Assembly: GCA_021851895.1 (NCBI GenBank)
Contig: JAJZQJ010000004.1
Location: 9,127 to 73,126, forward strand
Reading direction: 5' to 3'
From: a bacterium
Lineage (GTDB): Bacteria; Patescibacteriota; Minisyncoccia; Phycocordibacterales; UBA6899
DNA length: 64,000 nt
A program made the position numbers and the translations under genes. Of the stretch, positions 2,431-62,428 are shown piece after piece. The notes under the pieces were generated by a model. That model had not been told where the DNA came from and did not search any database. It was given only the letters and a program-made list of their open reading frames with translations. Positions within the stretch are counted from its first letter, which is position 1, and each line of letters begins with the position of its first letter.

Positions 2431-3968
2431 TATTTCGAATTTCTTGATCGGTTTTTATCCCGAATACCGCGTTCAGCGATAAAATCAGTGAGCTCTTCGG
2501 CAGCTTCGGGGTGGCGTCCATACACGCCAAGGGTGTCCCGAATCTCAATGAGCTCTTTCTTGTAGAACGCGTATTTGTTGTATCTGCTCTCCGCCTCCCA
2601 GGCGGTTTTCACGAAACGGATGAGCTGTCCGACATCAGGGGAGGAATCTCCTCTCTCGACTCGGTTGAGTCGATTTGCGATCTCGAGGCAAGTCCTCTGG
2701 ACTTCTGCGGGGAAGCGCTGGATCGCAAACTTGATCCGACTCCACTCCGGCTTTCCGGCGATATGCGTGCGCCCCTTACTGAACATCAGGAGGAGTGTAT
2801 ACATATAATCCGGATTGGTGACGAACTCCCAGGCGTGGTGCTCAGTGCGGTGAAACAGTTCGCCCAGCTCAGGGGTCATCTTCTTATCCGCGTGACGGAT
2901 GAGTGCAGCGAGCGTCTTTGCGAAACTAAGCTTCTCCGGCTCGAGCATCGACAAGAAGCGTTCTTTGGGGAGATTCAGAAAATATTGCCAGATCGCAGCT
3001 TGGTGCAGCATCGTGATATACGTGTAGTCGAAACTATATCCCTGTTTGCGTCGTTGGAGGAGCTCTATGTCCATGTGCTCCAACTTCCTTCCGAATAAAC
3101 TGATTGCTTCATCGGGCAATATGCTTGGCATGCGCCAAGCGACTGCATGAAGTGCGGTCACATTGCCCGGAAACTCGAAGAACGAGAACAGGGAAAGGAG
3201 GAGCAACTGCCGCTTCTCATCCCCCTTGTGGTCGTCGTGGAGGATCGAAAACATCGCAGCGCGGAGTTCGGGAAGTATTCCGTATGAGTGGATACTCGCG
3301 AGAAGCACATTGCTCGGAAAGAAGTTGCGGTATTGGAGCATGAGCTCACGCGCAGTACGAAGGAGGTCGTCAGGCATCGCGCTCTCGGTACGCGCAAGAG
3401 CGCAGAGCGCATGTCCCGCAAGATCCCAATGACCGATGAGGCTGAGTGCCGCACAGAGTCGTAGGAGCTTGGTCGATTCACGGTGCGCCGTCGTCCAATC
3501 ATTGAAATGTTCGAACGGGGCACCTCCATACTTGAGTATCTTCCCAATACGCTCGATGAAGATCTCGGGATAGATCTTATTCTCTGTGATGCGACCGAGT
3601 TCATCGTTGATGATTCCCCAAACCCCCGCGCCGTAGTTTTCAAAAGCGAGTTCGAAGGTCAGGGAGTCATATTCGGCATACAGCAGGGCGTTGCGAATGT
3701 GGAGGCCGATCGAAGTTTCGCCCTTTTCGACTGCGCCGATAGGGGTACGCTCCATCATTAGGCGGAGGATAAGTCCTCTCCATGTGTTCGGCTCCGCGAG
3801 CGTTGCCTCGAGAAGTTCTTCAAGCGGTGCCGCAAGGATGCGATCACCGACTTCGTTATAAGTCCCTATGAAAAAGGGATGGGAGGGTTTTTGGTCGACG
3901 GACATCGTCGCTCCTTGTGTGAGGCCAAAGGGAATTCCCTTCGGGCATAGAAAGAACGCCAGGGCCAT
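2430..3968 (-). CDS. hypothetical protein (alternative starts 4034 or 3905)
   Basis: long ORF; ATG at 3968 preceded by aaaggag RBS and an upstream TTGACG-16-TATAAC promoter; no recognisable domain. Confidence 0.55.
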   Translation of the reverse strand: MALAFFLCPKGIPFGLTQGATMSVDQKPSHPFFIGTYNEVGDRILAAPLEELLEATLAEPNTWRGLILRLMMERTPIGAVEKGETSIGLHIRNALLYAEYDSLTFELAFENYGAGVWGIINDELGRITENKIYPEIFIERIGKILKYGGAPFEHFNDWTTAHRESTKLLRLCAALSLIGHWDLAGHALCALARTESAMPDDLLRTARELMLQYRNFFPSNVLLASIHSYGILPELRAAMFSILHDDHKGDEKRQLLLLSLFSFFEFPGNVTALHAVAWRMPSILPDEAISLFGRKLEHMDIELLQRRKQGYSFDYTYITMLHQAAIWQYFLNLPKERFLSMLEPEKLSFAKTLAALIRHADKKMTPELGELFHRTEHHAWEFVTNPDYMYTLLLMFSKGRTHIAGKPEWSRIKFAIQRFPAEVQRTCLEIANRLNRVERGDSSPDVGQLIRFVKTAWEAESRYNKYAFYKKELIEIRDTLGVYGRHPEAAEELTDFIAERGIRDKNRSRNSK

Positions 3969-4001
3969 GCGCTCCTTTGAGCGTATGGATGGATTCCTTT
4001 T

Positions 4002-4056
4002 TGTTATAGCACTCTCTCCTCCCGCGTCAAACAAAAACCACCGATGGTGGTTAGTG
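4002..4056 (-). promoter_or_regulatory. capA terminator hairpin (aaccaccatcggtggtt) followed by sigma70-like promoter TTGACG-17-TATAAC
   Basis: read on minus strand from sequence. Confidence 0.4.
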
Positions 4057-4059
4057 TGT

Positions 4060-5190
4060 TCATTCCTCTGTGGTGAGTGAAAACGTGCATCCGTCGGGGC
4101 TGATGTTTGGCATCACACCGAGATATCCCGCACACCACTTATTTGCCTCAAGTGGGGAGAGAAATGTTGGTGTCGCATGTGTGATCGTGTATGGGTAGAT
4201 CATGAACTCTGCGCTCCCCGAGTAAAGGGTCATACCAACTCCCATACCCTCGTTTTCCTTTACTCCGATCTGGTCAAAGATGAAATTTCCAAGCGCATAG
4301 AAAATCGCATGCCCTTTGTAGTTTTCGACGTTCTCGACGACATGGGGATGATTGCCGATGATGACATCAGCACCTGCGTCGATCCATGTATGCGCGAGTG
4401 CCTTTTGTGTAGCATTTGCTCGGAGTGCATATTCGTCGCCCCAGTGGACGGTGACGAGAACGATATCATGCGTGCGTTTAAGATCGGCGATGAGTTGAGG
4501 TATGCCATCGAGCGGCATCGCTCCTATCGTTGCGTCGACTCCGACGATCGCAACACTCGTGCCATTCTCCATCGTCATGTCTACCCATGTGCGTGCTGTT
4601 GTTGGATAACCGGTGACGAATAGGCCCGCATCCTTGATATAACGCACGCTCTCATCGAGACCCTCTTGATTACAGTCGAGCATGTGGTTGTTTGCCATGG
4701 TGACTCCAGTGAAGTTCGCATCGCGCAAAAGAAGGGCGGTCGTCGTGGGGAATTGGAAGTTGAGCTCCTTTTGCTGACATACTTCACGCCGAATCGCCGT
4801 GATCGGTCCCTCAAGATTCAGCATGCGAATCGCATAGTCGCTCATGATGTCTACACTGCGGAGGCTAGAGAATGGATCAACACCGTTATCGATGTTCTTT
4901 CGCACACCTCTGTCGAACATCGCATCGCCGAAGTGTAAGATCTTCACGGGATTGAAGTTCACTCCATGCTTTTTGACTGCGAGTACTGTGGATGTCGCTG
5001 GTGTGCTTGTTGGTAGGACATCATCAACGATCGGCGCCGACGACGTTGCCGCGAGCATGCCCCCGGTGAATGTCCGTGTGCCCGTATGGCCAGCCACCTT
5101 GCTCCATGCGGAGGAGAATATGAATACATTGATCACTGATGTGATCACGATGAGTAGGCCGATATAGAAGTGGTGCTTGCGACCGTGCAT
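4060..5190 (-). CDS. CapA/PgsA-family metallophosphatase (poly-gamma-glutamate synthesis-like), membrane anchored
   Basis: motifs VTVHWGDEY and GADVIIGNHPHV typical of the CapA family; N-terminal TM segment. Confidence 0.7.
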   Translation of the reverse strand: MHGRKHHFYIGLLIVITSVINVFIFSSAWSKVAGHTGTRTFTGGMLAATSSAPIVDDVLPTSTPATSTVLAVKKHGVNFNPVKILHFGDAMFDRGVRKNIDNGVDPFSSLRSVDIMSDYAIRMLNLEGPITAIRREVCQQKELNFQFPTTTALLLRDANFTGVTMANNHMLDCNQEGLDESVRYIKDAGLFVTGYPTTARTWVDMTMENGTSVAIVGVDATIGAMPLDGIPQLIADLKRTHDIVLVTVHWGDEYALRANATQKALAHTWIDAGADVIIGNHPHVVENVENYKGHAIFYALGNFIFDQIGVKENEGMGVGMTLYSGSAEFMIYPYTITHATPTFLSPLEANKWCAGYLGVMPNISPDGCTFSLTTEE

Positions 5191-5269
5191 GAAATCATAG
5201 TACCTCTAATTAACAAAGAGTAAAGTAAACAGTTATTGCAAAAGAGGACCATTCTAGTACTATGAGCTC

Positions 5270-6349
5270 ATGATATCCCTAGATGATTATGATTACGATC
5301 TTCCGCAGGAACATATCGCGAAGGATCCCGCGCAGCCACGAGAGAGCGCACGTCTTTTCGTATACAACACGGCAACTGATGAGATCTCCTTTGATACGTT
5401 TGCGAATATAAGGCAGTATCTTCCGAAAGACACACTTCTTGTATTCAATAATACTCGCGTCATCCCCGCACGCCTTTGGCTTAAAAAGGAGACTGGAGGG
5501 AAGATCGAGGTCTTGCTCATGATGAATGAATACCGTGCTGGCGATGCGCTCATCAAGGGTGTTGTGGATCGCAAGATCACGAAGGGTGCGAAATTGTATT
5601 TTAGGAATGGTGCATGGCTCGAAGTCGATCACCAGGAAGAGCAGTATTTTTTCTTTAAGCCCAGCTTCTCTATGCCTGAGATATGGACATTGCTCGATGA
5701 CGAAGGAGTCACCCCGATACCTCCATATATAAAAGGGTCTTCGCTCAATGAAAAGGCATTGCGCGAAGAATATCAAAGCGTACTTGCAAAGGTGCCTGCG
5801 TCGGTCGCCGCACCGACCGCATCGTTGCATTTCTCCGATGTCCTCCTTGGTGAGCTTGAGGAGAAAGGTGTACAGCGTGCAGAGGTCACACTCCATGTTG
5901 GCGCAGGAACGTTTGCTCCGATCGGGCCAGAGAATTTCGCATCGAAGAAGTTGTTCACTGAATATTTTTCGGTAGACGATGAGAATGCAGAGAAGATCAA
6001 TATTGCAAAAGCTGATCGCGTATCGGTGATTCCCGTAGGGACCACGGCACTACGCACATTGGAGTCTGCTGCGGTGATCGATCATATCGACGAGCGCGGT
6101 GAAACCCACTACAAAATCGCGGTCGAGCATGGCAAGCCGACGGACATCTTTGTCTATCCACCGTATGATTTCAAGATCGCCGATGCGCTCATCACGAATT
6201 TTCATGTTCCACGCTCATCACTCATGCTCCTCGTGGACGCGATGCTTGAAGCGAAAGGTGCAAAGCGTCGCATCAAAGAGCTCTATGCGATCGCAATGAA
6301 AGAAAACTTTCGTTTCTACTCATTTGGTGATGGAATGCTGATCTTGTGA
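5270..6349 (+). CDS. queA: S-adenosylmethionine:tRNA ribosyltransferase-isomerase
   Basis: N-terminus MISLDDYDYDLPQEHIA, LLVFNNTRVIPARL, TTALRTLES, YSFGDGMLI all match QueA. Confidence 0.8.
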   Translation: MISLDDYDYDLPQEHIAKDPAQPRESARLFVYNTATDEISFDTFANIRQYLPKDTLLVFNNTRVIPARLWLKKETGGKIEVLLMMNEYRAGDALIKGVVDRKITKGAKLYFRNGAWLEVDHQEEQYFFFKPSFSMPEIWTLLDDEGVTPIPPYIKGSSLNEKALREEYQSVLAKVPASVAAPTASLHFSDVLLGELEEKGVQRAEVTLHVGAGTFAPIGPENFASKKLFTEYFSVDDENAEKINIAKADRVSVIPVGTTALRTLESAAVIDHIDERGETHYKIAVEHGKPTDIFVYPPYDFKIADALITNFHVPRSSLMLLVDAMLEAKGAKRRIKELYAIAMKENFRFYSFGDGMLIL

Positions 6350-6478
6350 GTTTTCGAAAGGACGCCCTCTGTGGCGTTTTTTCTTTACTTTGCATATGAA
6401 GAGTGCTACTATGCGCGCAGAATTTTTCGCATTGAGTTTTCTTGATGCGTCCGCATAAGTGCGGGGGAGGTAAGAGCA

Positions 6479-7066
6479 ATGCGCATTGCCGCCACCCTTG
6501 GTGTCGATGAAGGATCTCGCGTGGCTCGCACGATCGTGTCTGCGATCAACGAAGCGAAGTCGTGCCCCGAGCAGACCGCGAACTTCAATTGTCTTGGGGT
6601 GACCATCGCGGTCAACCCCGATTCCGTACCGCGACTGATCTTTGACGAATTTCTCCGTGTCCTCAACGGGCGCCTCGAAGGGGTGGTCGGTCCATACCCA
6701 ATCGATATCCCCATCGAAGACCTTTCTGTGCCTTCTTTGCGTGCGCGCATAGAAGCGGAGCTTGCGTTCGCGGAGCCCATGGCCGTCAATAGTGAGCCCG
6801 CATGGACCGAGTTCAAGACGATGAATCGGGATGTCTGCGGATACGCCCAAAGCATGGTTGAGTATATCGAGCGATGGGCTCGATTGATGCAGGTGCGGAT
6901 ACGCGCGGGGCAGAAGATTGAAGACGTAGCCATCGGTGCCTCGTATGAGGCAGATTTCGATGGTATCCGTCTGCTCGTGTTTCAGCGAGCTATGGTCGAG
7001 CTTTCTTTGCACTGGAAATTCGGTAAGGAACTTCTGCGCGAGCGGTGGCGTGGCCTCTATTGGTAA
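6479..7066 (+). CDS. hypothetical protein
   Basis: strong RBS gggggaggtaagagcaATG; terminator after queA upstream; own terminator downstream. Confidence 0.5.
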   Translation: MRIAATLGVDEGSRVARTIVSAINEAKSCPEQTANFNCLGVTIAVNPDSVPRLIFDEFLRVLNGRLEGVVGPYPIDIPIEDLSVPSLRARIEAELAFAEPMAVNSEPAWTEFKTMNRDVCGYAQSMVEYIERWARLMQVRIRAGQKIEDVAIGASYEADFDGIRLLVFQRAMVELSLHWKFGKELLRERWRGLYW

Positions 7067-7073
7067 ACAACGC

Positions 7074-7110
7074 AAAACTCTGTTAGGCATAGCCTTGGCA
7101 GAGTTTTTTA
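7074..7110 (+). terminator. rho-independent terminator
   Basis: stem ctctg...cagag followed by ttttt. Confidence 0.6.
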
Positions 7111-7244
7111 TAAATACGGCTCTGCGTAGTCATATTTTCCTATGTCCTTGAGTAGTGGGGTGCCCCATTCTTAAGGACATGTGGTCCAATACTATACTTT
7201 GCTGAAAAAAATCAATAAATAGTGCTAAATAAGGCTAAAATCGA

Positions 7245-7273
7245 TTGACAAAAGTAAAATTTGAGAGTAGTAT
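7245..7273 (+). promoter_or_regulatory. sigma70-like promoter TTGACA-17-TAGTAT upstream of rpsS, followed by a ~300-nt leader
   Basis: consensus hexamers read from sequence; leader contains a tandem 14-mer (7411-7438) and a perfect palindrome agaaggcatatgccttct (7538-7556). Confidence 0.45.
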
Positions 7274-7578
7274 CGAATCCAAGCTAATTGAATAAGGAAA
7301 TTTCTACGCCGTGGGAGGATCAGGGGCGCTAGATTTTCTATGTCAATACGCGGTCGAGTAGTGCATGGGAGATAGGATGTAGGTGCTAGTGAATGCAATT
7401 TGTATTTCACTATTCCCTATACCCTATTCCCTATACCCTCGGCATTTAATAGTATCGTTAAACTCCGCATCTTCTTAGAGAAGCTATACGACATCCTCCC
7501 TCGTGTCGGTGATCCTTCGTAAGATTCGGCAGGAACATACAGGGAGAAGGCATATGCCTTCTACCTTCAATCAACAAC

Positions 7579-7923
7579 ATGACGCGTTCACTTAAAAAGG
7601 GTCCTTACGTCTACGATCGCCTCCTCAAGAAAATCGAGGGGAAGCGTCCAGAAGACATGGGGGTCATCAAGACTTGGGCACGTGCGTCGGTCATCTCACC
7701 AGAGATGCTCAACTTCACGTTCGGTGTCCACAATGGAAAGGACTTCATCGAAGTCAAGGTTACTGAGGATATGATCGGACATCGCTTTGGCGAGTTCTCT
7801 CAGACTCGTAAGTTTACAAGACACGGAGGTAAGATGCAGAAGGAGCTCGAGCAGAAGCAGAAGCTCGCTGAGGTAGCTGCAGCAAAGGCAGCAAAGGCTT
7901 CCGGTGATGCTAAGAAGAAGTAA
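7579..7923 (+). CDS. rpsS: 30S ribosomal protein S19 with Lys/Ala-rich C-terminal extension
   Basis: MTRSLKKGPYVYDRLLKKIE...HNGKDFIEV...GHRFGEF matches S19. Confidence 0.9.
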   Translation: MTRSLKKGPYVYDRLLKKIEGKRPEDMGVIKTWARASVISPEMLNFTFGVHNGKDFIEVKVTEDMIGHRFGEFSQTRKFTRHGGKMQKELEQKQKLAEVAAAKAAKASGDAKKK

Positions 7924-28421: not shown

Positions 28422-31400
<2,979 letters not shown>

Positions 31401-31513: not shown

Positions 31514-31638
31514 GCATTGATAGAGGTGGCTCGACGTTGTGGACCCACCCGGTCTCATTCCGAACCCGGAAGTGAAACATGATAGTGCCGATGATACTCC
31601 TCAGAAGGGGGAAAAGTAGGTAGCTGCCTCGATCAATG
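31514..31638 (+). rRNA. rrf: 5S ribosomal RNA
   Basis: ccggaagtgaaacatgatagtgccgatg... typical 5S; terminal helix cattgatagaggtggc / gctgcctcgatcaatg. Confidence 0.8.
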
Positions 31639-47163: not shown

Positions 47164-50100
47164 ATGGGAAAACGCGAAGGACAATCGATAGGAGGATTCT
47201 CGGCGCTTGGCGCAGCATTCGAGGGGCAAGAGCTTCCGATAGCTCCTGAGCCGAGACCAGCAGAGGAGGATCCGATCCCGAACAGCGCAGACACTGCTGG
47301 CGACCCTATCATCTTCGAAAATCATAGATATATTTTTGATGGTTATGATGCTGATGGTATGGCACGCCTTGAGGATTATTACTCTGGTGATATGAATGTT
47401 CCTCCAACGATAAAGCTCGTGACGCGCGAGCAGCTCCTCGAAGGTTTTCGTTTGGCAAAAGAGGATGAAGCAGCGGAAGAACGTCGAGCAATAGAAGGAG
47501 GTGAGCGCGCAGAGCGCGAGGCGGCTGCACGCATGGCGCAGGATATCGAGCATGGTATCGCACCATCATTGGCAGTAGATAATGAAATCGCGCGCGACGA
47601 GGTTGCTGTACAAGCGGCGGTCGATGTGGCAGAAGCAGTTCCTGCTCTTGCATCAGATGAATCAATGACTACCCCTCCTGGCATGGAGCCCGTTCCACCA
47701 CAGCCTGAAGGCGAGCTTTCTGTGGATGATCAGCCCGAGAGGGCAAAGTGGCTCAACGTGGCGATTACACGCCTTATCGAGGTTGAAGGGCAGCTCAGGG
47801 CTCTAAAAAATAAAAATGGTCAAAAGCGTAAGGTTGGAGAATTATATCTGAAGCGCGACAAACTCGATGAAGAGATCCATGGAGTATTGAATGAAGTTGC
47901 ACCCGAGGTACTCAAAAGCATAAGGGTTGATGATTACGCACATATTGAAAATATGCGAGAGCTCTTCGGTAGTGAAAGAGATATTGTTGCACGCAAGGAG
48001 AAGGAGCAAGCATTGATCGCAGAGGGGAAGATCACTCAAGATGATCTCGATGCCTACAAAGCAGCACTTGCAAAGCGTAGCGAATTCATCAGCTCAATGA
48101 AAAAGATCGGTGTTCCTCATCACGTCGCAACGCGTCTCTTCCGAAATGAAGTAGACGAATTGCGCGCATTGGAGCAGGTCATTGCACGTGCCGATGTCCG
48201 AGACGCAAAGGTCTTGGATACACGGCAGGCGAAGCATCTTCTATCGCGTTTCGGTGTTAAGGATGAAAAAATTGAGTGGTATAAGGAAGTCATGCGTAAG
48301 AAGATCGAAGCAAATGAACCGCTGGCTCCAGACGAGTTTTCATCCTTTGTTTCGCGAGGCCAAGAGAGGCCGGTAGTGCCCGCTGCTCCAGATGTGCTTT
48401 CTGCAACTGAAGCATCAGCGCAACACTCAGACACCTCGGGGAATGAATCTGCTTTAGTTACTAATGCGAGCGAGGACATTGATCGTGAGATAGCAAGACT
48501 CGAATATAAATTGAAGAATACAGGATTCAGTTCTCTTACTGAAATGCGTGCTGCAAAAACTCGACTTGAAGAGTTGAAGCAAGACAAGGCAACGCTAGTG
48601 GGGAGAAATAAGCCTACTGCTTCAAAAAAGGATGATAGTGCATCTCCTGAGGTGAAGCGTGAGGATATTGCAGGAGTACTCGCCGAGGAACAAGAAGTTA
48701 AGGAGACCATTGCAAGAGATCGTCAACTCCAAGATGAAGCAGAACTTATCATCAAGCTCGAAGAGGAGATCGCGGGACTTACTGGTGGCAATAGAAAGGA
48801 ATATTTCGAGAATGTATTACGTGGTCTTACTGATGCGCACGAGGCGTTCTCTCGAGATAAGAAGGCGAGGTTATCGGACGGTCCACTTGCGCAATTGAAA
48901 AAATTGTCTGGAGAGATCGTTGCTCTACGAGAAGAGGGCGCTGCGCTTAGTGAGCGTAACCCGATTTCTCTACACGTACTCGAGGCGTTCAGTAAAGAAG
49001 GTGTCGAGTATGCCGACCTTGAAGCTATTCCAGGTTTCGTGGGGCTTAGTGAGGGGCAACAATTGTTGATGCTCAAGAACTATAGCACCGCGGTCGTCAA
49101 TAAAGTGAAGCGCGAGGCGAAGAGCGAGTCTGATGCAGCATGGAGTGAGCGAACATTCCTCGGCAAGCTTGGTCTCAGCATGCTGACGCTTGGTCTAGCA
49201 AAGAACATCAGTGAGCAGGCAAGACAGCGTGATATCGCACGAAAATTGAGCTCGGGAGAGAAGCTGGTCAAAGAGGAGCGTAGAGTCATGCTCGAAGCGT
49301 TTGCGAAGATCGCTATAGAGGGACCAGAAGTGGAACGAAGTGCAGACGGAGCCTTGCATACGCATTATCTTGCAACGGAGCGTTTCAAGGATGACAAGGA
49401 GGCACTCGAAGCAGTCAATGCGTATAATCGTGTAGCAGAAAAGTTCGCGAAATTGCCGAAGCAGTGGATCGATGCGGATCTTGCATTGCCACGTAATGAG
49501 CAACAGAGTTATTTCTCTAAATTGCTCGGCAAGAAGCACATGATGCTTTCTGGCAAAGAACACCTCGAGGTTGCAGAGACGAAGGAGGAATATCAAGAGT
49601 CGAGGAAACGCTTGCTCGCGGTCCTTGAGAAGCACAATGATAAGGAGCCGGGTGTAGAGGCGCGACGTAGCGCGATGCTCGAGATGAATGCGCTCGATGA
49701 ACGCGTCCAGCTCGATCAATTGTTCGCCTCGAATCCTGATGCCGAGGAGGCACTGCAGGACATAAGGGATACGAATGTGTTCACGCGTGCACTCAGTGAG
49801 TTCGGTAAACACCGCGGTCAATATATCGCATATGGTGCGGCGACGCGCTTTGTAGCGACAGCTGTCGTGGGTGCTATCGCAATACCGGGCACTATGGCTA
49901 TTGCCGGTGGTGCGGTCGCTGTCGGTGTCGCAGGCGCGGTCGGATATTTCCAGGCGCGCCGAGAGGCAAAGGAACTTTTGAAGACACGAAGAGCTTCGGG
50001 GCTCCTTAGTGATGAAGATCTTCGTGAGGATGTTGCATATACCGTCAACAACAGTGAGATCCTCGGACGTAAGGAAGAGGCGCACGCAGCAGCCCTAGAG

Positions 50101-52488
50101 AAGGGTGATCAAGAGCTTGCGAATCTCATAAAGCAGGACATCGATATCTTGCGCGGCAAGGTGAAGTCCGGTTCAGTAATTGAGCGAAGGATCAAACAGT
50201 TGAAGGAGTTCAAAGATGCGAAGTTCTATACTGATCGCATTGAACGCCTGCTGACGAAACTTGATGTAGCGAACGATATGGGTGATAAGGCGGCTGCAGA
50301 GACGATCGAGCGCAAGATCGCGCAAACCGCAACACTTATGCGTGAGCTCATGAAGCAGGGTATGCTGAGTTTTGGTGCCGAGAGTAGACTCGCGCGGGTA
50401 CATACGCGCCTCGATGGCGGTCCGCAGAAGGACCGTCATGATGATGCGGATGTTGCAATAAATAGCCTTGCATTCATGCAGGCACTCGGTCATGCAGATG
50501 CGGTCCATTCGCTCGACATGTCTGCGATAGAAGAGAAGCTCGAGAAGACACTCGGCGGATATCGTGAAGATATTGATGCCGCAGCGCGAAAGCGAAGTAC
50601 AAAACATGTCGCAAAAGCAGTTGCATTGCGTGCTGGATTCGGACTCGCAGGTTATGGTCTCGCGCGCGCAGGTATGCAATTCTTTGGAGGACATGGGGAA
50701 CAGGTCACACAACATGCGCATGGTGCAACACATGGACAGCCACATCAGTGGGCATTACCGAAGACTCCAGCACCAAAGACACATACTTGGGCATTGCCGG
50801 AGACGCCACGACCACCAGTTGCAAGCATAGAGCATGGCGGCCTTGCGCTTGGAGTACATACGGTCGCACATGGAGAGACGTTGACCGCGATCGCACGAAA
50901 GTTCCCTGAAATTGCGAAGCTTTCGGGGCATGACCAAGAAGTCGCTATTGCGAATCTCGTGAAGCATCTTTCTCCAGAGAAATTGAAGCTTCTTGGTATC
51001 TCAAGTGGTAACCCTAATCTCATTCGCACGGGTGAACATATCGATCTTACGAAGCTCCACGAGGAATTCGTCTCACTGAAGACCAGTGGTGCGCAGGTGG
51101 CAGCACATGCGGACAAGGTGATTCATCATGAGGTCGCTCCACGAGCAGGGGGTCAGGTCGTTCACGAAGACATGGGTGCAGAGAAGGAGGCTCAAGAAGC
51201 AGCGCATGCGCCGATGCGCATTCCTGCTCGCGGAAGAGTCAATCTTCCTCCTGGGTCACGACATGATGGGGTTGATGAGAGTATGCCCCATCCTCGACAT
51301 AAGGGTGGGTTCACGCTACCTCCTCCTGTCCCAGGTCAAGAAATACCACATTTCGGTTCTCCAATGGAGGCAGCTGCAGTCGTTCAGAATAAGATGGATC
51401 ATGCATTGAAGAGCATATTCGGTCAAAAGGGTCTCTTTGGTAGAGATCATACGAGGGAATGGGAAGGTGATCCACTTTCTCGAGTGCATGGACTCAAGGA
51501 TGCACCCGCACAACGTATGCTTGAGCATCGTTCCGGACTCCTTGCGGAATCTCGAACGCGTATGGGGCTGCGCAACTATATGCAAGAGTTGCATGGTCGC
51601 ACGCATATTGAGCCGCGCACGGGTGAGACGACGGAGATGTATATAAGACGCGCATTACTCTCTGAGGAGGGTGGTGTGCATGATGCGGTGAAGGCTCCCG
51701 TCAGTGAAATGAAGGAACTCGTACTCTCGCGCGTAGCTGAGGAGGTACATTCGACGAACGAAGCACTCGATGCATTTATTCCGAAGTTCATGAAGCGGTT
51801 TCCTGAAATCGCGCATGAGAGTGAGAGTGCTCGCGTGCAGACGATCGTCAATTTCTTACGCACTGCGAAGCCACAGCATTTTAAAGCGCTCGGCCTGAAC
51901 GGAGACGATATGCAGGCGCATATCGCGGGTGGAAGGCTTGATGCTGCACGTCTTACCGCATATCTTCATCAGCAAGGAGGAGCATCGCAGTCGATGCCGC
52001 ATGCAGTTGCTGAGAGTGCGCATCAGACTGTGCAAGCGCACATTCCGTCTGCAGAGAAGGTGATTCCAGGACCTGCGACGGCAACTGAAGGCGGACATTT
52101 GGCTCCGCTTTCACATGACGATGTCGTCATCATGGAGAAACGTTGGGATGATCTTACTGTGCTCAATAGGTCAGAGCTCGCTAATCGTATGGTTCCTGAT
52201 TACATCGATCGGGACATCGTGTCGCATCTGAAAGGCGCAGACCCAGAACATCTCATGAGCGCGCTGAAGGATCTTCCGATGCGCTTACTCTTCGCTGATA
52301 AGGAGAGTCTCGCAAAGACGATGGATCCAGGTGTTGCTGACGGTGTTGTCGCGCTTGGAAAGATCGTTACTGAAAGACATCTCATGAATATGGAAGAGGG
52401 TATCGACTGGGAGCAGCCAATTTCTACTTTTGTGAAAGAGGCTTACTTGAAGAAGTTACTCAGTGAGGGTCCTACTGCATTCAAATGA
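47164..52488 (+). CDS. giant (1774 aa) charged, coiled-coil-rich protein with central glycine-zipper TM hairpin, His-rich segment, WALP.TP.P mini-repeat and LysM-like segment
   Basis: E/K/R/A-rich heptad-like sequence over about 850 aa; FVATAVVGAIAIPGTMAIAGGAVAVGVAGAVGYF; HTVAHGETLTAIARKF...NLIRTGEHIDL resembles LysM. Confidence 0.6.
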   Translation: MGKREGQSIGGFSALGAAFEGQELPIAPEPRPAEEDPIPNSADTAGDPIIFENHRYIFDGYDADGMARLEDYYSGDMNVPPTIKLVTREQLLEGFRLAKEDEAAEERRAIEGGERAEREAAARMAQDIEHGIAPSLAVDNEIARDEVAVQAAVDVAEAVPALASDESMTTPPGMEPVPPQPEGELSVDDQPERAKWLNVAITRLIEVEGQLRALKNKNGQKRKVGELYLKRDKLDEEIHGVLNEVAPEVLKSIRVDDYAHIENMRELFGSERDIVARKEKEQALIAEGKITQDDLDAYKAALAKRSEFISSMKKIGVPHHVATRLFRNEVDELRALEQVIARADVRDAKVLDTRQAKHLLSRFGVKDEKIEWYKEVMRKKIEANEPLAPDEFSSFVSRGQERPVVPAAPDVLSATEASAQHSDTSGNESALVTNASEDIDREIARLEYKLKNTGFSSLTEMRAAKTRLEELKQDKATLVGRNKPTASKKDDSASPEVKREDIAGVLAEEQEVKETIARDRQLQDEAELIIKLEEEIAGLTGGNRKEYFENVLRGLTDAHEAFSRDKKARLSDGPLAQLKKLSGEIVALREEGAALSERNPISLHVLEAFSKEGVEYADLEAIPGFVGLSEGQQLLMLKNYSTAVVNKVKREAKSESDAAWSERTFLGKLGLSMLTLGLAKNISEQARQRDIARKLSSGEKLVKEERRVMLEAFAKIAIEGPEVERSADGALHTHYLATERFKDDKEALEAVNAYNRVAEKFAKLPKQWIDADLALPRNEQQSYFSKLLGKKHMMLSGKEHLEVAETKEEYQESRKRLLAVLEKHNDKEPGVEARRSAMLEMNALDERVQLDQLFASNPDAEEALQDIRDTNVFTRALSEFGKHRGQYIAYGAATRFVATAVVGAIAIPGTMAIAGGAVAVGVAGAVGYFQARREAKELLKTRRASGLLSDEDLREDVAYTVNNSEILGRKEEAHAAALEKGDQELANLIKQDIDILRGKVKSGSVIERRIKQLKEFKDAKFYTDRIERLLTKLDVANDMGDKAAAETIERKIAQTATLMRELMKQGMLSFGAESRLARVHTRLDGGPQKDRHDDADVAINSLAFMQALGHADAVHSLDMSAIEEKLEKTLGGYREDIDAAARKRSTKHVAKAVALRAGFGLAGYGLARAGMQFFGGHGEQVTQHAHGATHGQPHQWALPKTPAPKTHTWALPETPRPPVASIEHGGLALGVHTVAHGETLTAIARKFPEIAKLSGHDQEVAIANLVKHLSPEKLKLLGISSGNPNLIRTGEHIDLTKLHEEFVSLKTSGAQVAAHADKVIHHEVAPRAGGQVVHEDMGAEKEAQEAAHAPMRIPARGRVNLPPGSRHDGVDESMPHPRHKGGFTLPPPVPGQEIPHFGSPMEAAAVVQNKMDHALKSIFGQKGLFGRDHTREWEGDPLSRVHGLKDAPAQRMLEHRSGLLAESRTRMGLRNYMQELHGRTHIEPRTGETTEMYIRRALLSEEGGVHDAVKAPVSEMKELVLSRVAEEVHSTNEALDAFIPKFMKRFPEIAHESESARVQTIVNFLRTAKPQHFKALGLNGDDMQAHIAGGRLDAARLTAYLHQQGGASQSMPHAVAESAHQTVQAHIPSAEKVIPGPATATEGGHLAPLSHDDVVIMEKRWDDLTVLNRSELANRMVPDYIDRDIVSHLKGADPEHLMSALKDLPMRLLFADKESLAKTMDPGVADGVVALGKIVTERHLMNMEEGIDWEQPISTFVKEAYLKKLLSEGPTAFK

Positions 52489-54466: not shown

Positions 54467-55840
54467 ATGTCACATAAAGCGCGAATTGGTTTTTTCGGAG
54501 CCGTCGATTCTGTAACGGGAAATAACTTCTATTTTGAGGCAAGCGGTAAGAAACTCATGATCGACTGCGGTCTCTATCAGGGTGCACATTATGCAGATGA
54601 GCGCAATCACGCGCCTTTTGCTGTTGATCCAAAGACGATCGATATATTGCTTGTCACTCATGCGCACATCGACCATATCGGTCGCATTCCAAAGTTCGTT
54701 AAGGAGGGTTTCAAGGGTCGGATCATTTCGACGGTCCCCACGAAGGAGCTCGCCGAGATCATGCTCCGCGATACGGTCAGCATTCTTGCGCATGAGGCGA
54801 CGAGGGATGGTACGGAGCCTATCTATGAAGAGCACGATGTTGAGCGCACTATGCATCTTTGGCATACCGAGGAGTATTATGAGCCGTTTCCGATCGCCGA
54901 CCACTTGTCGTGCGAGATGAAGGACGCTGGCCATATGCTCGGGTCTGCAATGATGTTCCTCAAATTGGGCAGTGAGATCATGGTCTTTACGGGTGATCTT
55001 GGTAATTCTCCAACGCCACTCATTCGCGACACTGACTCGATAGCGGGAGCGAAATATCTTTTGATGGAAGCGGTTTATGGTGATCGCAATCATGAGGATC
55101 GCGATGAGCGTAAAGAGAATCTCAAGAAGGCTATTCTCGCGAGTGTTGCTAAGGGTGGCACGCTGCTCTTGCCCGCGTTCTCGATCGAGCGCACACAAGA
55201 GTTGCTTTTCGAGCTCAATGCAATGGTCGAGCACCATCAACTGCCGAGCGTGAAGATCTTCGTTGATTCACCGCTCGCGATAAAGGCGACACAGGTTTAC
55301 CATCATAGCGAGCGTTACTTCAACAAGGAGGCACGTCATATCATCAAGAGTGGCGATGATGTATTCCGTTTCCCGAATTTACATTTCACAGAGACGCGTG
55401 CAGAAAGTATGGCAATATGGGATCAACATGGTCCGAAGGTCATCATGGCAGGATCAGGAATGCTTAACGGTGGACGCATCATGCATCACTTCAAACATTT
55501 CGCAGGTGATGAGAAGACCGCGATCCTGCTCGCGGGATATCAGGCAGCAGGGACTGTCGGGAGACGACTCATCGATGGTGAGCGCCGCATACGCATGGGG
55601 GATGCTGAAGTTGAGGTTCGTGCGCAGTTGTCCGTGCTGAATGGTTACTCCGGACACAAAGATATGGATCACCTCGTTGAGTTTGTGCAGAATGGTGCAC
55701 CGACGCTGAAGAAGATATTCGTCGCTATCGGCGAGCCCCGCAGTACCATGTTCCTTGCGCAGCGCATTCGTGATTATCTCGGACTCGATGCACAAGTTCC
55801 TGAACTTGGCACGACGATCGAGCTCGAGTTCGCAGAATAA
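54467..55840 (+). CDS. beta-CASP family MBL-fold ribonuclease (RNase J / CPSF-like)
   Basis: LVTHAHIDHIG (HxHxDH), further His/Asp ligands, beta-CASP-length 457 aa. Confidence 0.7.
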   Translation: MSHKARIGFFGAVDSVTGNNFYFEASGKKLMIDCGLYQGAHYADERNHAPFAVDPKTIDILLVTHAHIDHIGRIPKFVKEGFKGRIISTVPTKELAEIMLRDTVSILAHEATRDGTEPIYEEHDVERTMHLWHTEEYYEPFPIADHLSCEMKDAGHMLGSAMMFLKLGSEIMVFTGDLGNSPTPLIRDTDSIAGAKYLLMEAVYGDRNHEDRDERKENLKKAILASVAKGGTLLLPAFSIERTQELLFELNAMVEHHQLPSVKIFVDSPLAIKATQVYHHSERYFNKEARHIIKSGDDVFRFPNLHFTETRAESMAIWDQHGPKVIMAGSGMLNGGRIMHHFKHFAGDEKTAILLAGYQAAGTVGRRLIDGERRIRMGDAEVEVRAQLSVLNGYSGHKDMDHLVEFVQNGAPTLKKIFVAIGEPRSTMFLAQRIRDYLGLDAQVPELGTTIELEFAE

Positions 55841-57273: not shown

Positions 57274-57304
57274 AAATTCCCGAAAGGGGATTTTTTCTTT
57301 CAGC
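57274..57304 (+). terminator. rho-independent terminator
   Basis: aaaaaattcccgaaaggggattttttc. Confidence 0.75.
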
Positions 57305-57374
57305 TCACAAGTTTGACACTTAGCATAAAATATTGTAGAAATAGCAACGGATATTTCTTTCATTTGGAGGCCAT

Positions 57375-58754
57375 ATGAATGGCAATCAGGTCGCATTCCC
57401 GCTCTCCTATAGTGGTCGTATTCCGAAAGGGTCGGCGCTTAAGGAGGCTGAGGTGGAAATGGCGATGTCCACGCACACGTGCAGTGTGCGCGTCGCTAAG
57501 GTTTCTGCGCAGTTCATGAAGAAGATCGAGTCGGAATTGTGTACTACGTGTACGGTGGATGGAGTGGAAATCCCACTGCTCTTCCCACCGCGAGTCGCTA
57601 TCGAGCCTGGGCCTATCCCCGGGGATGATCCACGGGGGAAGGAACAATTCGAAGGGTTTCTCGCAGAGAACAAGGATATGTTCGAAAGGCTGTCCCTGTT
57701 CGCGGGATTCTTCGGTCTCGACCGCATCCTCATTCGATTCGAAAGAGGTGACGCACAGGCACCGTTTCCCGTGCGTTCCCGCTCCGAGCTCGATGTGCTC
57801 ATTTTCACTGGACCCATCAGTTCTGTGGACAAGAAGACGATGAAGAGCATCGGCGGCATGCCGATCAATGGAAATGATAAGGGCCGCCCGGTTCTCATGT
57901 CGCATTGCCCGATTCGTGGCGGAGTGCTCATTGAGGGCGAGCAAGTGCTCATGCAGTACATCGATAATACGATTTACACGCTGTTCCACCCCTCGACGCT
58001 TGTCGAACGCGGTGGCATCTATGCGACCGACTGTTATCTCGATGCATTGATCAATACCATTGCGCTTTGGCGTGCGAAGAAAACCGGCTATGAGGATGCT
58101 GATGCATCGCTTAAGCCAACATTTCTTCCCGTTGATGGCGAGGGTGTTGCGACTGAGTTCGCGCGTGCAGAAAAGAAGGTGCGCGATGAGTGCACGAGAG
58201 AAATCGGTGACCTCAACGAGCGAATTCGTAAGCAAGAGAAAGAGCTCTTGAGGTTGCGCAGGGAAGTCCTTGTGCTGCAGAAGCAGTGCACGATGCCGCT
58301 ACTTTTCAGTAATGCCGCATTTGTGCTCGATGAAGCGCGTCGTGATGAGCTGCTTGAGAGCGTGCGCCGCTTCTCGGTGCACCCGCTTGTGGAGAAGCTT
58401 CAAATCGTCTCTGACCTCGGCATCCACCTGCTCACGAAGGAGGTGGTCATTACGCACGAGTCGCAGCGCTATCGCATCGGAACGTTCAGTGCGCTCTTTC
58501 ACTACGATGGGAACATCAGCGTCTGGGCGACGACGACCCATCATCCCGATGGGGTCCCTCATCCGCATATCGAGCGAGATACAGGAATGTGCCTCGGCAA
58601 TGTGAGTGACGCGATCAGGCGTGCGCTTGCGGAATTTCGCTTCGGCGACGCGATCGAGTTCTTTCTCGTGTCGCTCGAAGAGGGCTACACTCATGAGAAT
58701 GTGCTATTCCACCCGGTTACCGAGTGGCCCATCGTTTGCAAAGAGGAGGCCTGA
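57375..58754 (+). CDS. multidomain protein with C-terminal E2-like (UBC-fold) domain: unknown N-terminal region, coiled coil, then HPH...C catalytic-type motif
   Basis: ...VWATTTHHPDGVPHPHIERDTGMCLGNVSDAI...EWP matches the HPN-x4-G-x-C-L signature of ubiquitin-conjugating enzymes; strong ggagg RBS; stop overlaps the next start (TGATG). Confidence 0.5.
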   Translation: MNGNQVAFPLSYSGRIPKGSALKEAEVEMAMSTHTCSVRVAKVSAQFMKKIESELCTTCTVDGVEIPLLFPPRVAIEPGPIPGDDPRGKEQFEGFLAENKDMFERLSLFAGFFGLDRILIRFERGDAQAPFPVRSRSELDVLIFTGPISSVDKKTMKSIGGMPINGNDKGRPVLMSHCPIRGGVLIEGEQVLMQYIDNTIYTLFHPSTLVERGGIYATDCYLDALINTIALWRAKKTGYEDADASLKPTFLPVDGEGVATEFARAEKKVRDECTREIGDLNERIRKQEKELLRLRREVLVLQKQCTMPLLFSNAAFVLDEARRDELLESVRRFSVHPLVEKLQIVSDLGIHLLTKEVVITHESQRYRIGTFSALFHYDGNISVWATTTHHPDGVPHPHIERDTGMCLGNVSDAIRRALAEFRFGDAIEFFLVSLEEGYTHENVLFHPVTEWPIVCKEEA

Positions 58755-59416
58755 TGCCGCGAATGAATTTTTCCATGCAGAATCGTCTGTTCGATCCTGA
58801 GCACGCGCGCTCGGTCACCGTTATCGGTGTGGGCTCTGTCGGCAGCAATGTCGCCGATATGCTCGCGCGCATCGGCGTGGAGCACCTTGCGGTCGTCGAT
58901 GGCGATTGTGTGGAGTCCCACAACATTCCCGCTTCGCGATTCGGTATTGCCGACCTTGGATATTTCAAGGCCGACATCGTCGCGAAGAGGCTGCTCAAGG
59001 AGACTGGCCTTACCGCCAAAGTCGAGCGCCGCTACTATGAGGGCAACGATCGCCTCAAGGGATCCGTCTTCTCCTGTGTCGACACCATGTCGGCGCGAAT
59101 GAAGATCTGGTCCGCAGTCAAAAAGAATCCGCTCGTCGATGTCTTTATCGACACGCGAGTGGCCGTACGTTTCTTCACCGTGTTCTGCGTGCGCCCCTCG
59201 GTTCCCGAGGATATCGCACATTACGAGCAGTTTCTCTATGAGGATGCCGAGGCGACCGGTCAGAGCTGTGGAGCGCACGGCATCATCACTGCGTCCGCAA
59301 TGGTCGCTGCTGAGGCTGTAGAGCGCTTGTGCGCATTTTGGTCTGATGGTAATATCCGCCTACAGACGGAAGGTCTCGTCGGTGGTGCACGTTTTCCCGT
59401 AACCCCTCACAACTAA
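58754..59416 (+). CDS. ThiF/MoeB/E1-like adenylyltransferase (minimal E1)
   Basis: VTVIGVGSVGSNVADMLARIGVEHLAVVDGDCVESHNI Rossmann/ATP-binding signature of the E1 superfamily; translationally coupled to upstream gene. Confidence 0.7.
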   Translation: MPRMNFSMQNRLFDPEHARSVTVIGVGSVGSNVADMLARIGVEHLAVVDGDCVESHNIPASRFGIADLGYFKADIVAKRLLKETGLTAKVERRYYEGNDRLKGSVFSCVDTMSARMKIWSAVKKNPLVDVFIDTRVAVRFFTVFCVRPSVPEDIAHYEQFLYEDAEATGQSCGAHGIITASAMVAAEAVERLCAFWSDGNIRLQTEGLVGGARFPVTPHN

Positions 59417-59426
59417 GGAGGAACTC

Positions 59427-59675
59427 GTGAGCAAACACGAGATCGAAATCAACCTGGAACAGATCCCCCTGGAGGGTGACACCCTCAACGCGAAGGTCAA
59501 GGTGCCCGCGAAGCTGGTGGAGACCCTCGGGGCCACCGTCGCCGACATCGCCGAGAGCCAGGGCATCTCCCTCAAGGGCAAGAACATCTACGTCAACGGC
59601 AAGCACGCCAACGAGAGCACTGTGGTGACGGGCAATGACACCGTCCGCTTCACTGAGCGCCCGAAGAGCTCTTAA
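59427..59675 (+). CDS. small beta-grasp (ubiquitin-like / ThiS-MoaD-like) protein, GTG start, C-terminus ...TERPKSS (no terminal Gly-Gly)
   Basis: 82 aa; ...KGKNIYVNGKHANESTVVTGNDTVRFTE resembles the VNG...v..GD.V pattern of sulfur-carrier/Ubl proteins; aaggagg RBS 5 nt before GTG; 10 nt after E1 stop. Confidence 0.4.
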   Translation: MSKHEIEINLEQIPLEGDTLNAKVKVPAKLVETLGATVADIAESQGISLKGKNIYVNGKHANESTVVTGNDTVRFTERPKSS

Positions 59676-59687
59676 GTTCTTATCAAT

Positions 59688-59714
59688 ACGACTCCGCTAC
59701 GGCGGAGTTTTTCA
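59688..59714 (+). terminator. rho-independent terminator ending the three-gene cassette
   Basis: actccgctacggcggagttttt. Confidence 0.7.
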
Positions 59715-59730
59715 TTGTGGATAACTTTTG

Positions 59731-59759
59731 TTGACGGTAATTACAAATGCAATATAATA
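59731..59759 (+). promoter_or_regulatory. promoter TTGACG-17-TATAAT followed by two hairpin+T-run structures (59763-59795, 59803-59835) in the leader of the next gene
   Basis: hexamers; hairpins aggaggcgtcgcctct+tttttt and aagaagagagtcaacgtctcttctt+tattt. Confidence 0.45.
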
Positions 59760-59857
59760 ACATTATTGGAGGAGGCGTCGCCTCTCTTTTTTGTCCAAAA
59801 ATTTTGGATGAAGAAGAGAGTCAACGTCTCTTCTTTATTTAGTTCTTAATAATTTCT

Positions 59858-61387: not shown

Positions 61388-61843
61388 ATGTCTGCGATGG
61401 CGAATTTGATCGAGCATAGACGAGTGCGTTTTGATTTCGAACTCCAGAAGACCTATGAAGCAGGTATGGAGCTTCTTGGTGGTGAGGTGAAATCCCTGCG
61501 CGCGCATCACGGCAAACTCGAGGGTGCTCATGTGACTGTTCGCGGGGGAGAAGCATATCTCATCGGTATGGAAATTCCTCCCTATCAATCACAGCCGATC
61601 TCCGAAGGATATGAGGCACAGCGCAATCGCAGGTTGCTCCTCAATAAAACAGAGCTTCGTGAATTAAGCGAAGCGGAGGAAACAAGAGGGTTGACAATAG
61701 TGCCAATTGCAGTGTATAATAAAGGGCGCGTTATCAAGATTTCCATCGCAATTGCGAAGGGAAAGAAGAAGGGTGATAAGCGCGAAACCATCAAAAAGCG
61801 TGAGGCGGAGCGAGAGATCGCCCGCGCCATGAAGATACGCTAG
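61388..61843 (+). CDS. smpB: SsrA-binding protein SmpB
   Basis: RVRFDFELQKTYEAGMELLGGEVKSLRAHHGKLEGAHVTVRGGEAYLIGMEI matches SmpB. Confidence 0.85.
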   Translation: MSAMANLIEHRRVRFDFELQKTYEAGMELLGGEVKSLRAHHGKLEGAHVTVRGGEAYLIGMEIPPYQSQPISEGYEAQRNRRLLLNKTELRELSEAEETRGLTIVPIAVYNKGRVIKISIAIAKGKKKGDKRETIKKREAEREIARAMKIR

Positions 61844-62039: not shown

Positions 62040-62428
62040 GGGGATGACTTGGCTTCGACAAGTTGACTCGTAGTGAATCGTGCGTGCCGGAGATGCCGAT
62101 TGTCTCCGCAAAAACATCGGTAAACCATAAGTGCAAACAAAAGCACCGGAGTTGCTTCACCATATTTTGGTGCCAAGGACTTCTCATTCGCATACGCATA
62201 ATTGCGGCGACGTGGCATAGGGAGGACTCCTTATAGGCTCTATCCCACGATCACTTCATAAGGATAGGTGACTTCCGTACGATAAGTCATTCGAACATTA
62301 AGTACTCGTGTTGAGTGAATTTTGTTTCTTTCATATCACTCTTCATTAAACACTTAAAGAAACTACGCCCGTAGAAACATTCATTACTTCGATTTGGACG
62401 GGGGTTCAATTCCCCCCATCTCCACAAA
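62040..62428 (+). ncRNA. ssrA: tmRNA (SsrA); predicted tag ANKSTGVASPYFGAKDFSFAYA; CCA not encoded
   Basis: 5' ggggatgacttggcttcgaca..., 3' ...ggacgggggttcaattccccccatctcca; resume codon GCA then ORF ending ...FAYA taa; terminator 62432-62468; adjacent to smpB. Confidence 0.8.

Follow-up and report, generated by a model that had tools for sequence, protein, structure and literature searches.

Three adjacent genes in a 64,000-nucleotide stretch of contig JAJZQJ010000004.1 (assembly GCA_021851895.1, positions 9,127 to 73,126, a Patescibacteriota bacterium), here called the window, encode an E2-like protein (gene 1), an E1-like adenylyltransferase (gene 2) and a ubiquitin-like protein (Ubl, gene 3). 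These genes form a real, conserved and previously uncatalogued E2-E1-Ubl module. The fold and motif evidence for the cassette is solid, and we hold the homology assignments of the three genes, which come from profile and model comparison, with high confidence. The original prediction, made from the sequence of this DNA, had read the cassette as ubiquitination-like, and the analysis supports that reading. We consider it rather probable that the cassette is a self-contained, peptidase-less conjugation module of the ubiquitination type.

The three open reading frames (ORFs) were recovered as originally described. Gene 1 encodes 459 amino acids and contains HPHIERDTGMCLGNV at residues 396-410 and EWP at residues 450-452, so the UBC-type signature and the EWP proposed for its C-terminus are both present. 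Gene 2 encodes 220 amino acids, including VTVIGVGSVGSNV. Its ATG at 58754 shares one base with the TGA of gene 1 (TGATG), and AGGAGG lies immediately upstream. Gene 3 encodes 82 amino acids, starts with GTG 10 nt past the stop codon of gene 2 and ends in TERPKSS. The features of the cassette are as follows.

57304-57331, plus strand: candidate sigma70-like promoter in the gap between rplT and gene 1, CTCACA-16-TAAAAT, a weak match (9/12) from a consensus scan only
~57313, plus strand: TTGACA hexamer in the same gap, read from the sequence
57375-58754, plus strand: gene 1, multidomain E2-like protein with a predicted N-terminal GATase1-like domain, a long helix and a C-terminal UBC-fold domain
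57375-58076, plus strand: residues 1-234 of gene 1, alpha/beta domain with a GATase1-like fold, which may serve assembly or the recognition of targets
58137-58292, plus strand: residues 255-306 of gene 1, one long helix (coiled-coil-like linker), from the AlphaFold2 (AF2) model and library matches to coiled coils only
58332-58751, plus strand: residues 320-459 of gene 1, UBC/E2-fold domain, from the AF2 model and hhalign with shuffle controls
58560-58601, plus strand: E2 active-site motif H396-P-H398-x7-C406-x-G408-N409, from the family alignment; the Cys codon TGC is at 58590-58592
58754-59416, plus strand: gene 2, single-domain ThiF/E1 adenylyltransferase, translationally coupled to gene 1
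58826-58843, plus strand: E1 nucleotide-binding loop G25-V-G-S-V-G30, with G25, G27 and G30 invariant
59267-59269, plus strand: TGT codon of E1 Cys172 at the end of the crossover loop, the sole invariant Cys in the E1 family
59415-59421, plus strand: AAGGAGG ribosome-binding site of gene 3, overlapping the stop codon of gene 2
59427-59675, plus strand: gene 3, predicted beta-grasp Ubl (SAMP2/ThiS-like), GTG start, GC content at third codon positions (GC3) 0.89
59667-59672, plus strand: C-terminal Ser81-Ser82 of the Ubl, Ser82 being the residue expected to be activated
59690-59714, plus strand: terminator region closing the operon, with an intrinsic-terminator-like hairpin and T-run (59690-59709), 8-bp stem with 5 GC pairs

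The cassette had been described as promoter-less at its start, which is inaccurate. In the 100-nt gap downstream of rplT lie sigma70-like hexamers and a hairpin with a T-run. A promoter of its own is therefore probable for the cassette, the candidate being a consensus match only. The terminator expected after gene 3 was found at the hairpin and T-run listed above. The junctions of genes 1 and 2 overlap in all lineages, which suggests an E2-E1 complex.

No family match for gene 1 was obtained in Pfam, NCBIfam, PADLOC, PHROGs or PDB sequences, only coiled-coil noise. The Pfam UQ_con and Prok-E2_A-E models matched neither the protein, nor its isolated C-terminal domain (E up to 10), nor any of 98 relatives. 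A search of BFVD gave weak matches only, to unnamed phage proteins of 423-542 amino acids. With a word-index homolog search only 2-7 relatives were found. The family, which comprises 285 clusters at 50% identity (146 at E ≤1e-10), became visible only through an exhaustive profile search. The relatives are mostly 440-520 amino acids long and have chiefly the C-terminal 130-180 residues in common. The family signature is HPH-[IV]-x3-G-x2-C-[FYL]-G-N, followed further on by E-W-P. H396, P397, H398, C406, G408, N409 and W451 are invariant in 98 family sequences. A Cys lies 8 residues after an HPN-type tripeptide (H396-P-H398-x7-C406). The Asn of the HPN motif is absent from the 98 sequences, with an invariant His398 in its place, and N409 of the C-x-G-N segment is invariant nearby.

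The AF2 model of gene 1 was built from the 98-sequence alignment; a run with 8 sequences gave a pLDDT of 51 and was discarded. In the model the C-terminal domain consists of a helix, a 5-strand meander, the HPH...C loop, two helices and the EWP, that is, a UBC fold. Alignment of this domain family to four canonical E2s with hhalign gave a probability of 85.6 and a P value of 5.5e-6 over 87 columns. It paired HPH with HPN (H75-P-N77 of UBE2D2) and C406 with the catalytic Cys85 of UBE2D2. The real profile scored 38.3, whereas 30 column shuffles and the reversed profile scored no higher than 20.2. The UBE2D2 sequence used is 100% identical to PDB 1ur6_A. The UBC fold anticipated for the C-terminus of gene 1 was thus recovered by both the model and hhalign. 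The coiled coil placed before it corresponds to the long helix at residues 255-306, and the E2 is indeed embedded in a large multidomain protein made of the GATase1-like domain, the helix and the UBC domain. The GATase1-like fold of residues 1-234 has conserved P147, G182, Q194 and Y201 and no conserved Cys/His/Glu triad.

Two other readings of gene 1 were rejected. The N-terminal domain was considered as a cysteine peptidase of the PfpI/DJ-1 type, which would be the missing deubiquitinase (DUB), and was dismissed because no Cys or His is conserved there. The segment HPDGVPHPH…C was considered as a metal site or JAMM-like motif. Its spacing does not fit HxH-x7-S-xx-D, and both fold and profile alignment indicate UBC.

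A distant member of the E2 family, P0020, is encoded in a phage-like contig that also carries genes for terminase, DnaB, primase and Pol III alpha (JGI Ga0484395_0000948, locus L010, 8985-13223). Directly upstream of P0020 is a head-to-tail triple Ubl, whose units end in …KQVKGN and are joined by AGG. Between the P0020 E2 and a ThiF-type E1 lies a 388-amino-acid protein with a perfect JAMM motif, H109-S-H-x7-S-x2-D122. The poly-Ubl/E2/JAB/E1 set of L010 is complete and appears to be virus-encoded. It connects this family of E2s with Ubl conjugation and marks the cellular cassettes as a derivative or sibling that lacks the peptidase. No JAMM motif was detected near the cellular cassettes or in the whole 64-kb window, in agreement with the earlier statement that no JAB/DUB is adjacent. 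Scans of viral contigs for related loci gave no matches.

Gene 2 matches PF00899, the family proposed for it, at 54.8 bits (gathering score 28.1). It is far under every NCBIfam equivalog cut-off for ThiF, MoeB, UbaA, TcdA and PRTRC. PADLOC matches it only in the Rossmann segment of Cap2-type "E1-E2" models (about 1e-15). Among 18-21 relatives of gene 2, residues G25, G27, G30, D49, D51, H56, N57, K72, D110, R115 and R135 are invariant, and C172 in a C-G-x-H motif is the single invariant cysteine. The family profile places C172 opposite Cys184 of E. coli ThiF, at the end of the crossover loop; this second aligned segment is weak alone and collinear with the first. The E1 had been called minimal, with no obvious separate catalytic-cysteine domain. 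The first part stands, as the protein is one domain of 220 amino acids, but its sequence alignment points to C172 as a catalytic-type cysteine, as in UBA5, ThiF and MoeB.

Among PDB sequences the E1 profile matches MccB (3.6e-12) and PaaA (5e-11) best; both enzymes act on non-Gly C-termini. The terminal residue of the Ubl is almost invariantly Ser, and Asn in the phage relative; MccA also has a C-terminal Asn. These matches would fit an MccB/PaaA-like tailoring in which the E1-like enzyme modifies the Ubl's own C-terminal Ser, e.g. with a nucleotide adduct, and nothing is ligated to a target. We regard this as very improbable. The MccB/PaaA alignment is limited to the shared Rossmann segment (residues 18-91), and ThiF and UBA5, also among the top matches, score equally well. 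The small E1 does not have the N-terminal peptide-clamp domain of MccB and PaaA, and the gene 3 product is a folded beta-grasp protein of 71-93 amino acids across the family, not a short peptide. Tailoring would also leave the invariant E2-type Cys and the relative with JAB and poly-Ubl unexplained.

Gene 3 barely passes the gathering score of ThiS (23.8 vs 22.5 bits, a marginal result), 7 of the 14 gene 3 orthologues match the SAMP2 family, and the gene 3 family profile matches Pyrococcus SAMP2 structures with an E-value of 1.2e-5 (PDB 5lda_B). The gene 3 product is therefore predicted to be a beta-grasp Ubl of the SAMP2/ThiS-like type. The ThiS model alignment ends 7 positions short of the termini of both the model and the protein, so that the encoded C-terminus corresponds to the position of the terminal Gly of ThiS. 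To our knowledge, a C-terminal Gly is the rule of every known Ubl pathway. The window's protein ends in -SS, with neither Gly nor Gly-Gly, as originally noted; this ending belongs to the window's clade. Across the family, the tails end in -GS in 11 distinct variants (…ERPQGS, …EKTAGS and others), in -DS in one and in -GG in one. The -SS and -DS endings are confined to the clade of the window, and -GS is the family norm. Ser is terminal in all 13 Ser-ended variants, and only locus L015, from a high-GC metagenome-assembled genome (MAG), has a Gly-Gly end. The tail carries an Arg at -4, as in ubiquitin. Since the -SS and -DS tails keep Ser and lose Gly, the terminal Ser is more conserved than the penultimate Gly.

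Two models of the tail were compared. In the first, the carboxylate of the terminal Ser itself would be adenylated. The window's clade speaks rather for this model, as a tail without any Gly goes together there with a fully intact E1 and E2. In the second, the terminal Ser would be a one-residue cap, removed as in polyubiquitin caps. This model is disfavoured by the retention of the terminal Ser where the penultimate Gly is lost and by a tail length equal to that of the ThiS model. The GC3 of gene 3 is 0.75-0.89 in six lineages (the window, L002, L004, L005, L007 and L009), vs about 0.5-0.7 for the E1 and E2 partners and neighbouring genes, rplT among them. This fits a modifier needed in stoichiometric amounts, and the bias may come from selection for high expression or from a constraint at the RNA level.

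The best sequence matches of gene 3, ThiS and SAMP2, are sulfur carriers (SAMP2 also conjugates), and C172 of the E1 is aligned with ThiF C184, the acyl-persulfide Cys. One locus (L012) has a rhodanese-domain gene nearby. The Ubl might thus be converted to a C-terminal thiocarboxylate, as ThiS, MoaD, TtuB and SAMP are, for thiolation of tRNA or a cofactor, with the Cys of gene 1 acting as a persulfide relay and not as an E2. This seems improbable to us. All known carriers end in Gly-Gly. CxxC zinc motifs are absent from gene 2 and its relatives, no rhodanese domain is present in the E1, and the scores of gene 2 are far under the ThiF/MoeB equivalog cut-offs (50.8 vs 159 and 49.2 vs 275 bits). 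Linkage to thiamine or molybdopterin genes, which the original prediction had named as evidence against itself, was observed at no recovered locus, and neither molybdenum cofactor (Moco) nor tRNA-thiolation genes (TtuA/NcsA-type) are linked at any. In sulfur transfer no role is known for a UBC-fold partner that has a canonical HPx...C loop, and in the phage relative the same type of E2 stands beside poly-Ubl and JAB, which is conjugation hardware.

The order gene 1-gene 2-gene 3 is found in every recovered locus, in about 15 distinct lineages with unrelated neighbourhoods, and the recurrence of the cassette is therefore far beyond chance. Eight named genomes carry it: two Lloydbacteria, one Uhrbacteria, one "Patescibacteria group", one unclassified bacterium and three MAGs labelled Gammaproteobacteria, a label that could not be verified. 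Nine metagenome contigs also carry it. In an all-against-all clustering only genes 1, 2 and 3 were common between lineages. The flanking genes are housekeeping genes for ribosomal proteins, UvrC, MraZ/MraW, TsaD, DinB, NUDIX and HD proteins and transporters.

With the same enzymology, the role could be antiphage defence of the Bil type, in which the variable N-terminus of gene 1 recognises and tags a phage structural protein and the cassette is mobile. This rival concerns the role and not the mechanism. The distribution is patchy, and related candidate phyla radiation (CPR) lineages carry the cassette at different chromosomal positions; E1 relatives at 38-55% identity occupy different neighbourhoods. 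The N-terminal half of gene 1 diverges much faster than the E2 domain, and a related system is found in the phage-like contig. Among the bacterial systems characterised so far, the Ubl+E1+E2 operons of Bil and the E1-E2 fusions in CBASS (cyclic-oligonucleotide-based antiphage signalling systems) are antiphage, and Bub is inferred to be so (PMC11601596). However, none of about 13 independent neighbourhoods resembles a defence island, and PADLOC is silent on genes 1 and 3. No JAB peptidase, CapH/CapP or CapW-type regulator, or effector is present, and within the window's clade the cassette is syntenic downstream of infC-rpmI-rplT and vertically inherited. We find an antiphage role doubtful.

By their own definitions, the cassette is outside every described family (PMC1779556, PMC11601596). 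By analogy, it would work most like Bil, with a minimal E1 in the style of UBA5 and an E2 in the style of the E2/E3 hybrids. Bil is operon type 6d of Iyer 2006, with BilA as Ubl, BilB as E2, BilC as JAB and BilD as E1. In both, a single operon holds distinct genes for Ubl, E2 and E1, and the E2 uses a Cys and is thought to choose its target without an E3. L010 has the same four components, JAB included. The cellular cassette differs in having no JAB. Its E1 is a single 220-amino-acid adenylation domain with a crossover-loop Cys, whereas the Bil E1 has the architecture IAD-AAD-CYS (PMC11601596). Its E2 retains the classical His (HPH), unlike the 6d E2s (PMC1779556), and is fused to an N-terminal module of roughly 300 residues. 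The Ubl ends in Ser, and PADLOC gives no match for genes 1 or 3.

The Rossmann segment of gene 2 is nearest to the PADLOC "E1-E2" (Cap2) models and 6A-MBL cap2_3, and CBASS Cap2/Cap3 (6a-6c) likewise uses Cys-based E1 and E2 chemistry. However, Cap2 is an E2-E1 fusion, its substrate is the CD-NTase and not a Ubl, and the JAB protein Cap3 is present; none of these was found in the cassette. The score of gene 2 for the CBASS Cap2 family of NCBIfam is 51.5 (cut-off 320). Bub (6e/DUF6527) resembles the cassette as a bacterial E1+E2+Ubl operon with a minimal homodimeric ThiF-like E1 domain, and Bub Ubls often consist of several beta-grasp domains, like the triple Ubl of the phage relative. The Bub E1 and E2 have no catalytic Cys and form oxyesters on Tyr/Ser, and Bub includes the serine protease BubE and gene fusions (PMC11601596). 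In the cassette, C172 of the E1 and C406 of the E2 are invariant, there is no DUF6527, and the E2 is fused to neither Ubl nor E1.

The archaeal SAMP/UbaA and Thermus TtuB/TtuC systems share with the cassette a small ThiS/MoaD-like Ubl and a compact non-canonical E1. They have no E2 at all, and their Ubls end in Gly-Gly and double as sulfur carriers; the UbaA score of gene 2 is 25.5 (NCBIfam cut-off 450). From strict ThiF/MoeB sulfur-carrier enzymes the cassette departs in equivalog score, CxxC zinc site, gene neighbourhood and Gly-Gly carrier, and from PRTRC in score (TIGR03736, 43.7 vs 144.75 bits) and in having no ParB or other conserved partners. In UBA5-UFC1-UFM1 the E1 is also minimal and homodimeric with its catalytic Cys in the crossover loop, and in the E2/E3 hybrids UBE2O and BIRC6 the UBC domain also lies inside a larger protein supplying its own substrate recognition. 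No specific sequence relationship to the cassette was detectable for either. UFM1 matures to a C-terminal Gly by a dedicated protease, and eukaryotic systems use an E3 (UFL1) and DUBs.

For the conjugation module favoured here, the homology and fold of all three parts, the conservation of catalytic-type residues and the operon coupling are already grounded; from them we infer the chemical steps, the target and the role. The minimal E1, probably a homodimer like ThiF, MoeB and UBA5, would bind the abundant 82-amino-acid Ubl and adenylate its C-terminal carboxylate, here that of Ser82, at the place that the terminal Gly occupies in ThiS and ubiquitin. The acyl group would be passed to Cys172 in the crossover loop of the E1, and transthioesterification would carry it on to Cys406 of the UBC-fold domain in gene 1. 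The GATase1-like domain and the long helix may provide built-in substrate recognition and perhaps dimerisation to suit the dimeric E1, an arrangement as in E2/E3 hybrids. The cassette encodes no E3, and this part of gene 1 would direct transfer of the Ubl to a target amine, probably a lysine. Since the cassette lacks a JAB/DUB, the Ubl would go into use in its encoded form, and no dedicated enzyme would take the mark off again. More tentatively, the cassette may represent an E1-E2 cascade native to CPR/Patescibacteria, in which direct activation of the Ser carboxylate, against the Gly rule of known Ubl pathways, and an E2 with its own targeting domain lead to irreversible (no DUB) ligation to host proteins. 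It would then be a fourth mechanistically distinct bacterial family, with a housekeeping and not an immune role, which we consider possible and no stronger.

Bacterial E1/E2/Ubl systems are already known as a class (CBASS Cap2, Bil and Bub) and have been characterised only recently. All three come with a peptidase, and their link to phage defence was shown (CBASS, Bil) or drawn from genomic context (Bub). What is new here is an E2 family seen by no domain library, whose HPx…Cys loop stays closer to the eukaryote-like form than that of the Bil and Bub E2s. The architecture is the smallest seen so far: the E1 has 220 amino acids, the E2 has an additional domain built in, and there is neither a DUB nor an E3. 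Most of its carriers are ultra-small CPR bacteria whose proteomes are drastically reduced. The near-invariant terminal Ser of the modifier raises a testable question, namely how strict the Gly requirement of E1 enzymes is. In the library of open-access papers that was searched, we found no description of a Ser-ended Ubl or of a CPR Ubl system.

Several further observations concern the surroundings of the cassette. In two separate CPR clades, that of the window and a Lloydbacteria-type clade (L011, L018 and L019), only a few kb separate it from infC-rpmI-rplT, and in two other lineages it is near rpmB or rpsL. This closeness to translation genes may be a loose link, or a coincidence in small genomes densely packed with genes. 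At the locus with the Gly-Gly Ubl (L015, region 2441-7615), the gene directly upstream encodes an 877-amino-acid AAA+ ATPase with PF00004 and AAA_lid_3 (the Cdc48/proteasomal-ATPase lid type), a single case that hints at a possible unfoldase link. In the window, the gene downstream of the cassette encodes a 231-amino-acid protein with an N-terminal hydrophobic segment, and its counterpart in L002 has a weak match to DUF5666. The 180 nt that separate this gene from the cassette terminator contain, at 59731-59842, a near-consensus sigma70-like promoter candidate, TTGACG-16-TATAAT (11/12), and two more hairpins with T-runs.

Elsewhere in the window, a metallo-beta-lactamase (MBL)/beta-CASP protein of 457 amino acids (RNase J-like) is encoded at 54467-55840. 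It has a weak precomputed match to Anti-Pycsar Apyc1, which most likely reflects only the shared MBL fold. The 23S rRNA gene is at 28429-31395 and the 5S rRNA gene at 31522-31632; no 16S match and no tRNA gene were detected in the 64 kb. A few genes upstream of the cassette, at 47164-52488, an ORF of 1774 amino acids with no recorded Pfam match encodes a large acidic protein that is rich in repeats and helices and has a hydrophobic segment, traits that are typical of CPR giant proteins. The smpB gene is located at 61388-61843 and is followed by a full-length tmRNA at 62040-62427 with the tag peptide ANKSTGVASPYFGAKDFSFAYA.

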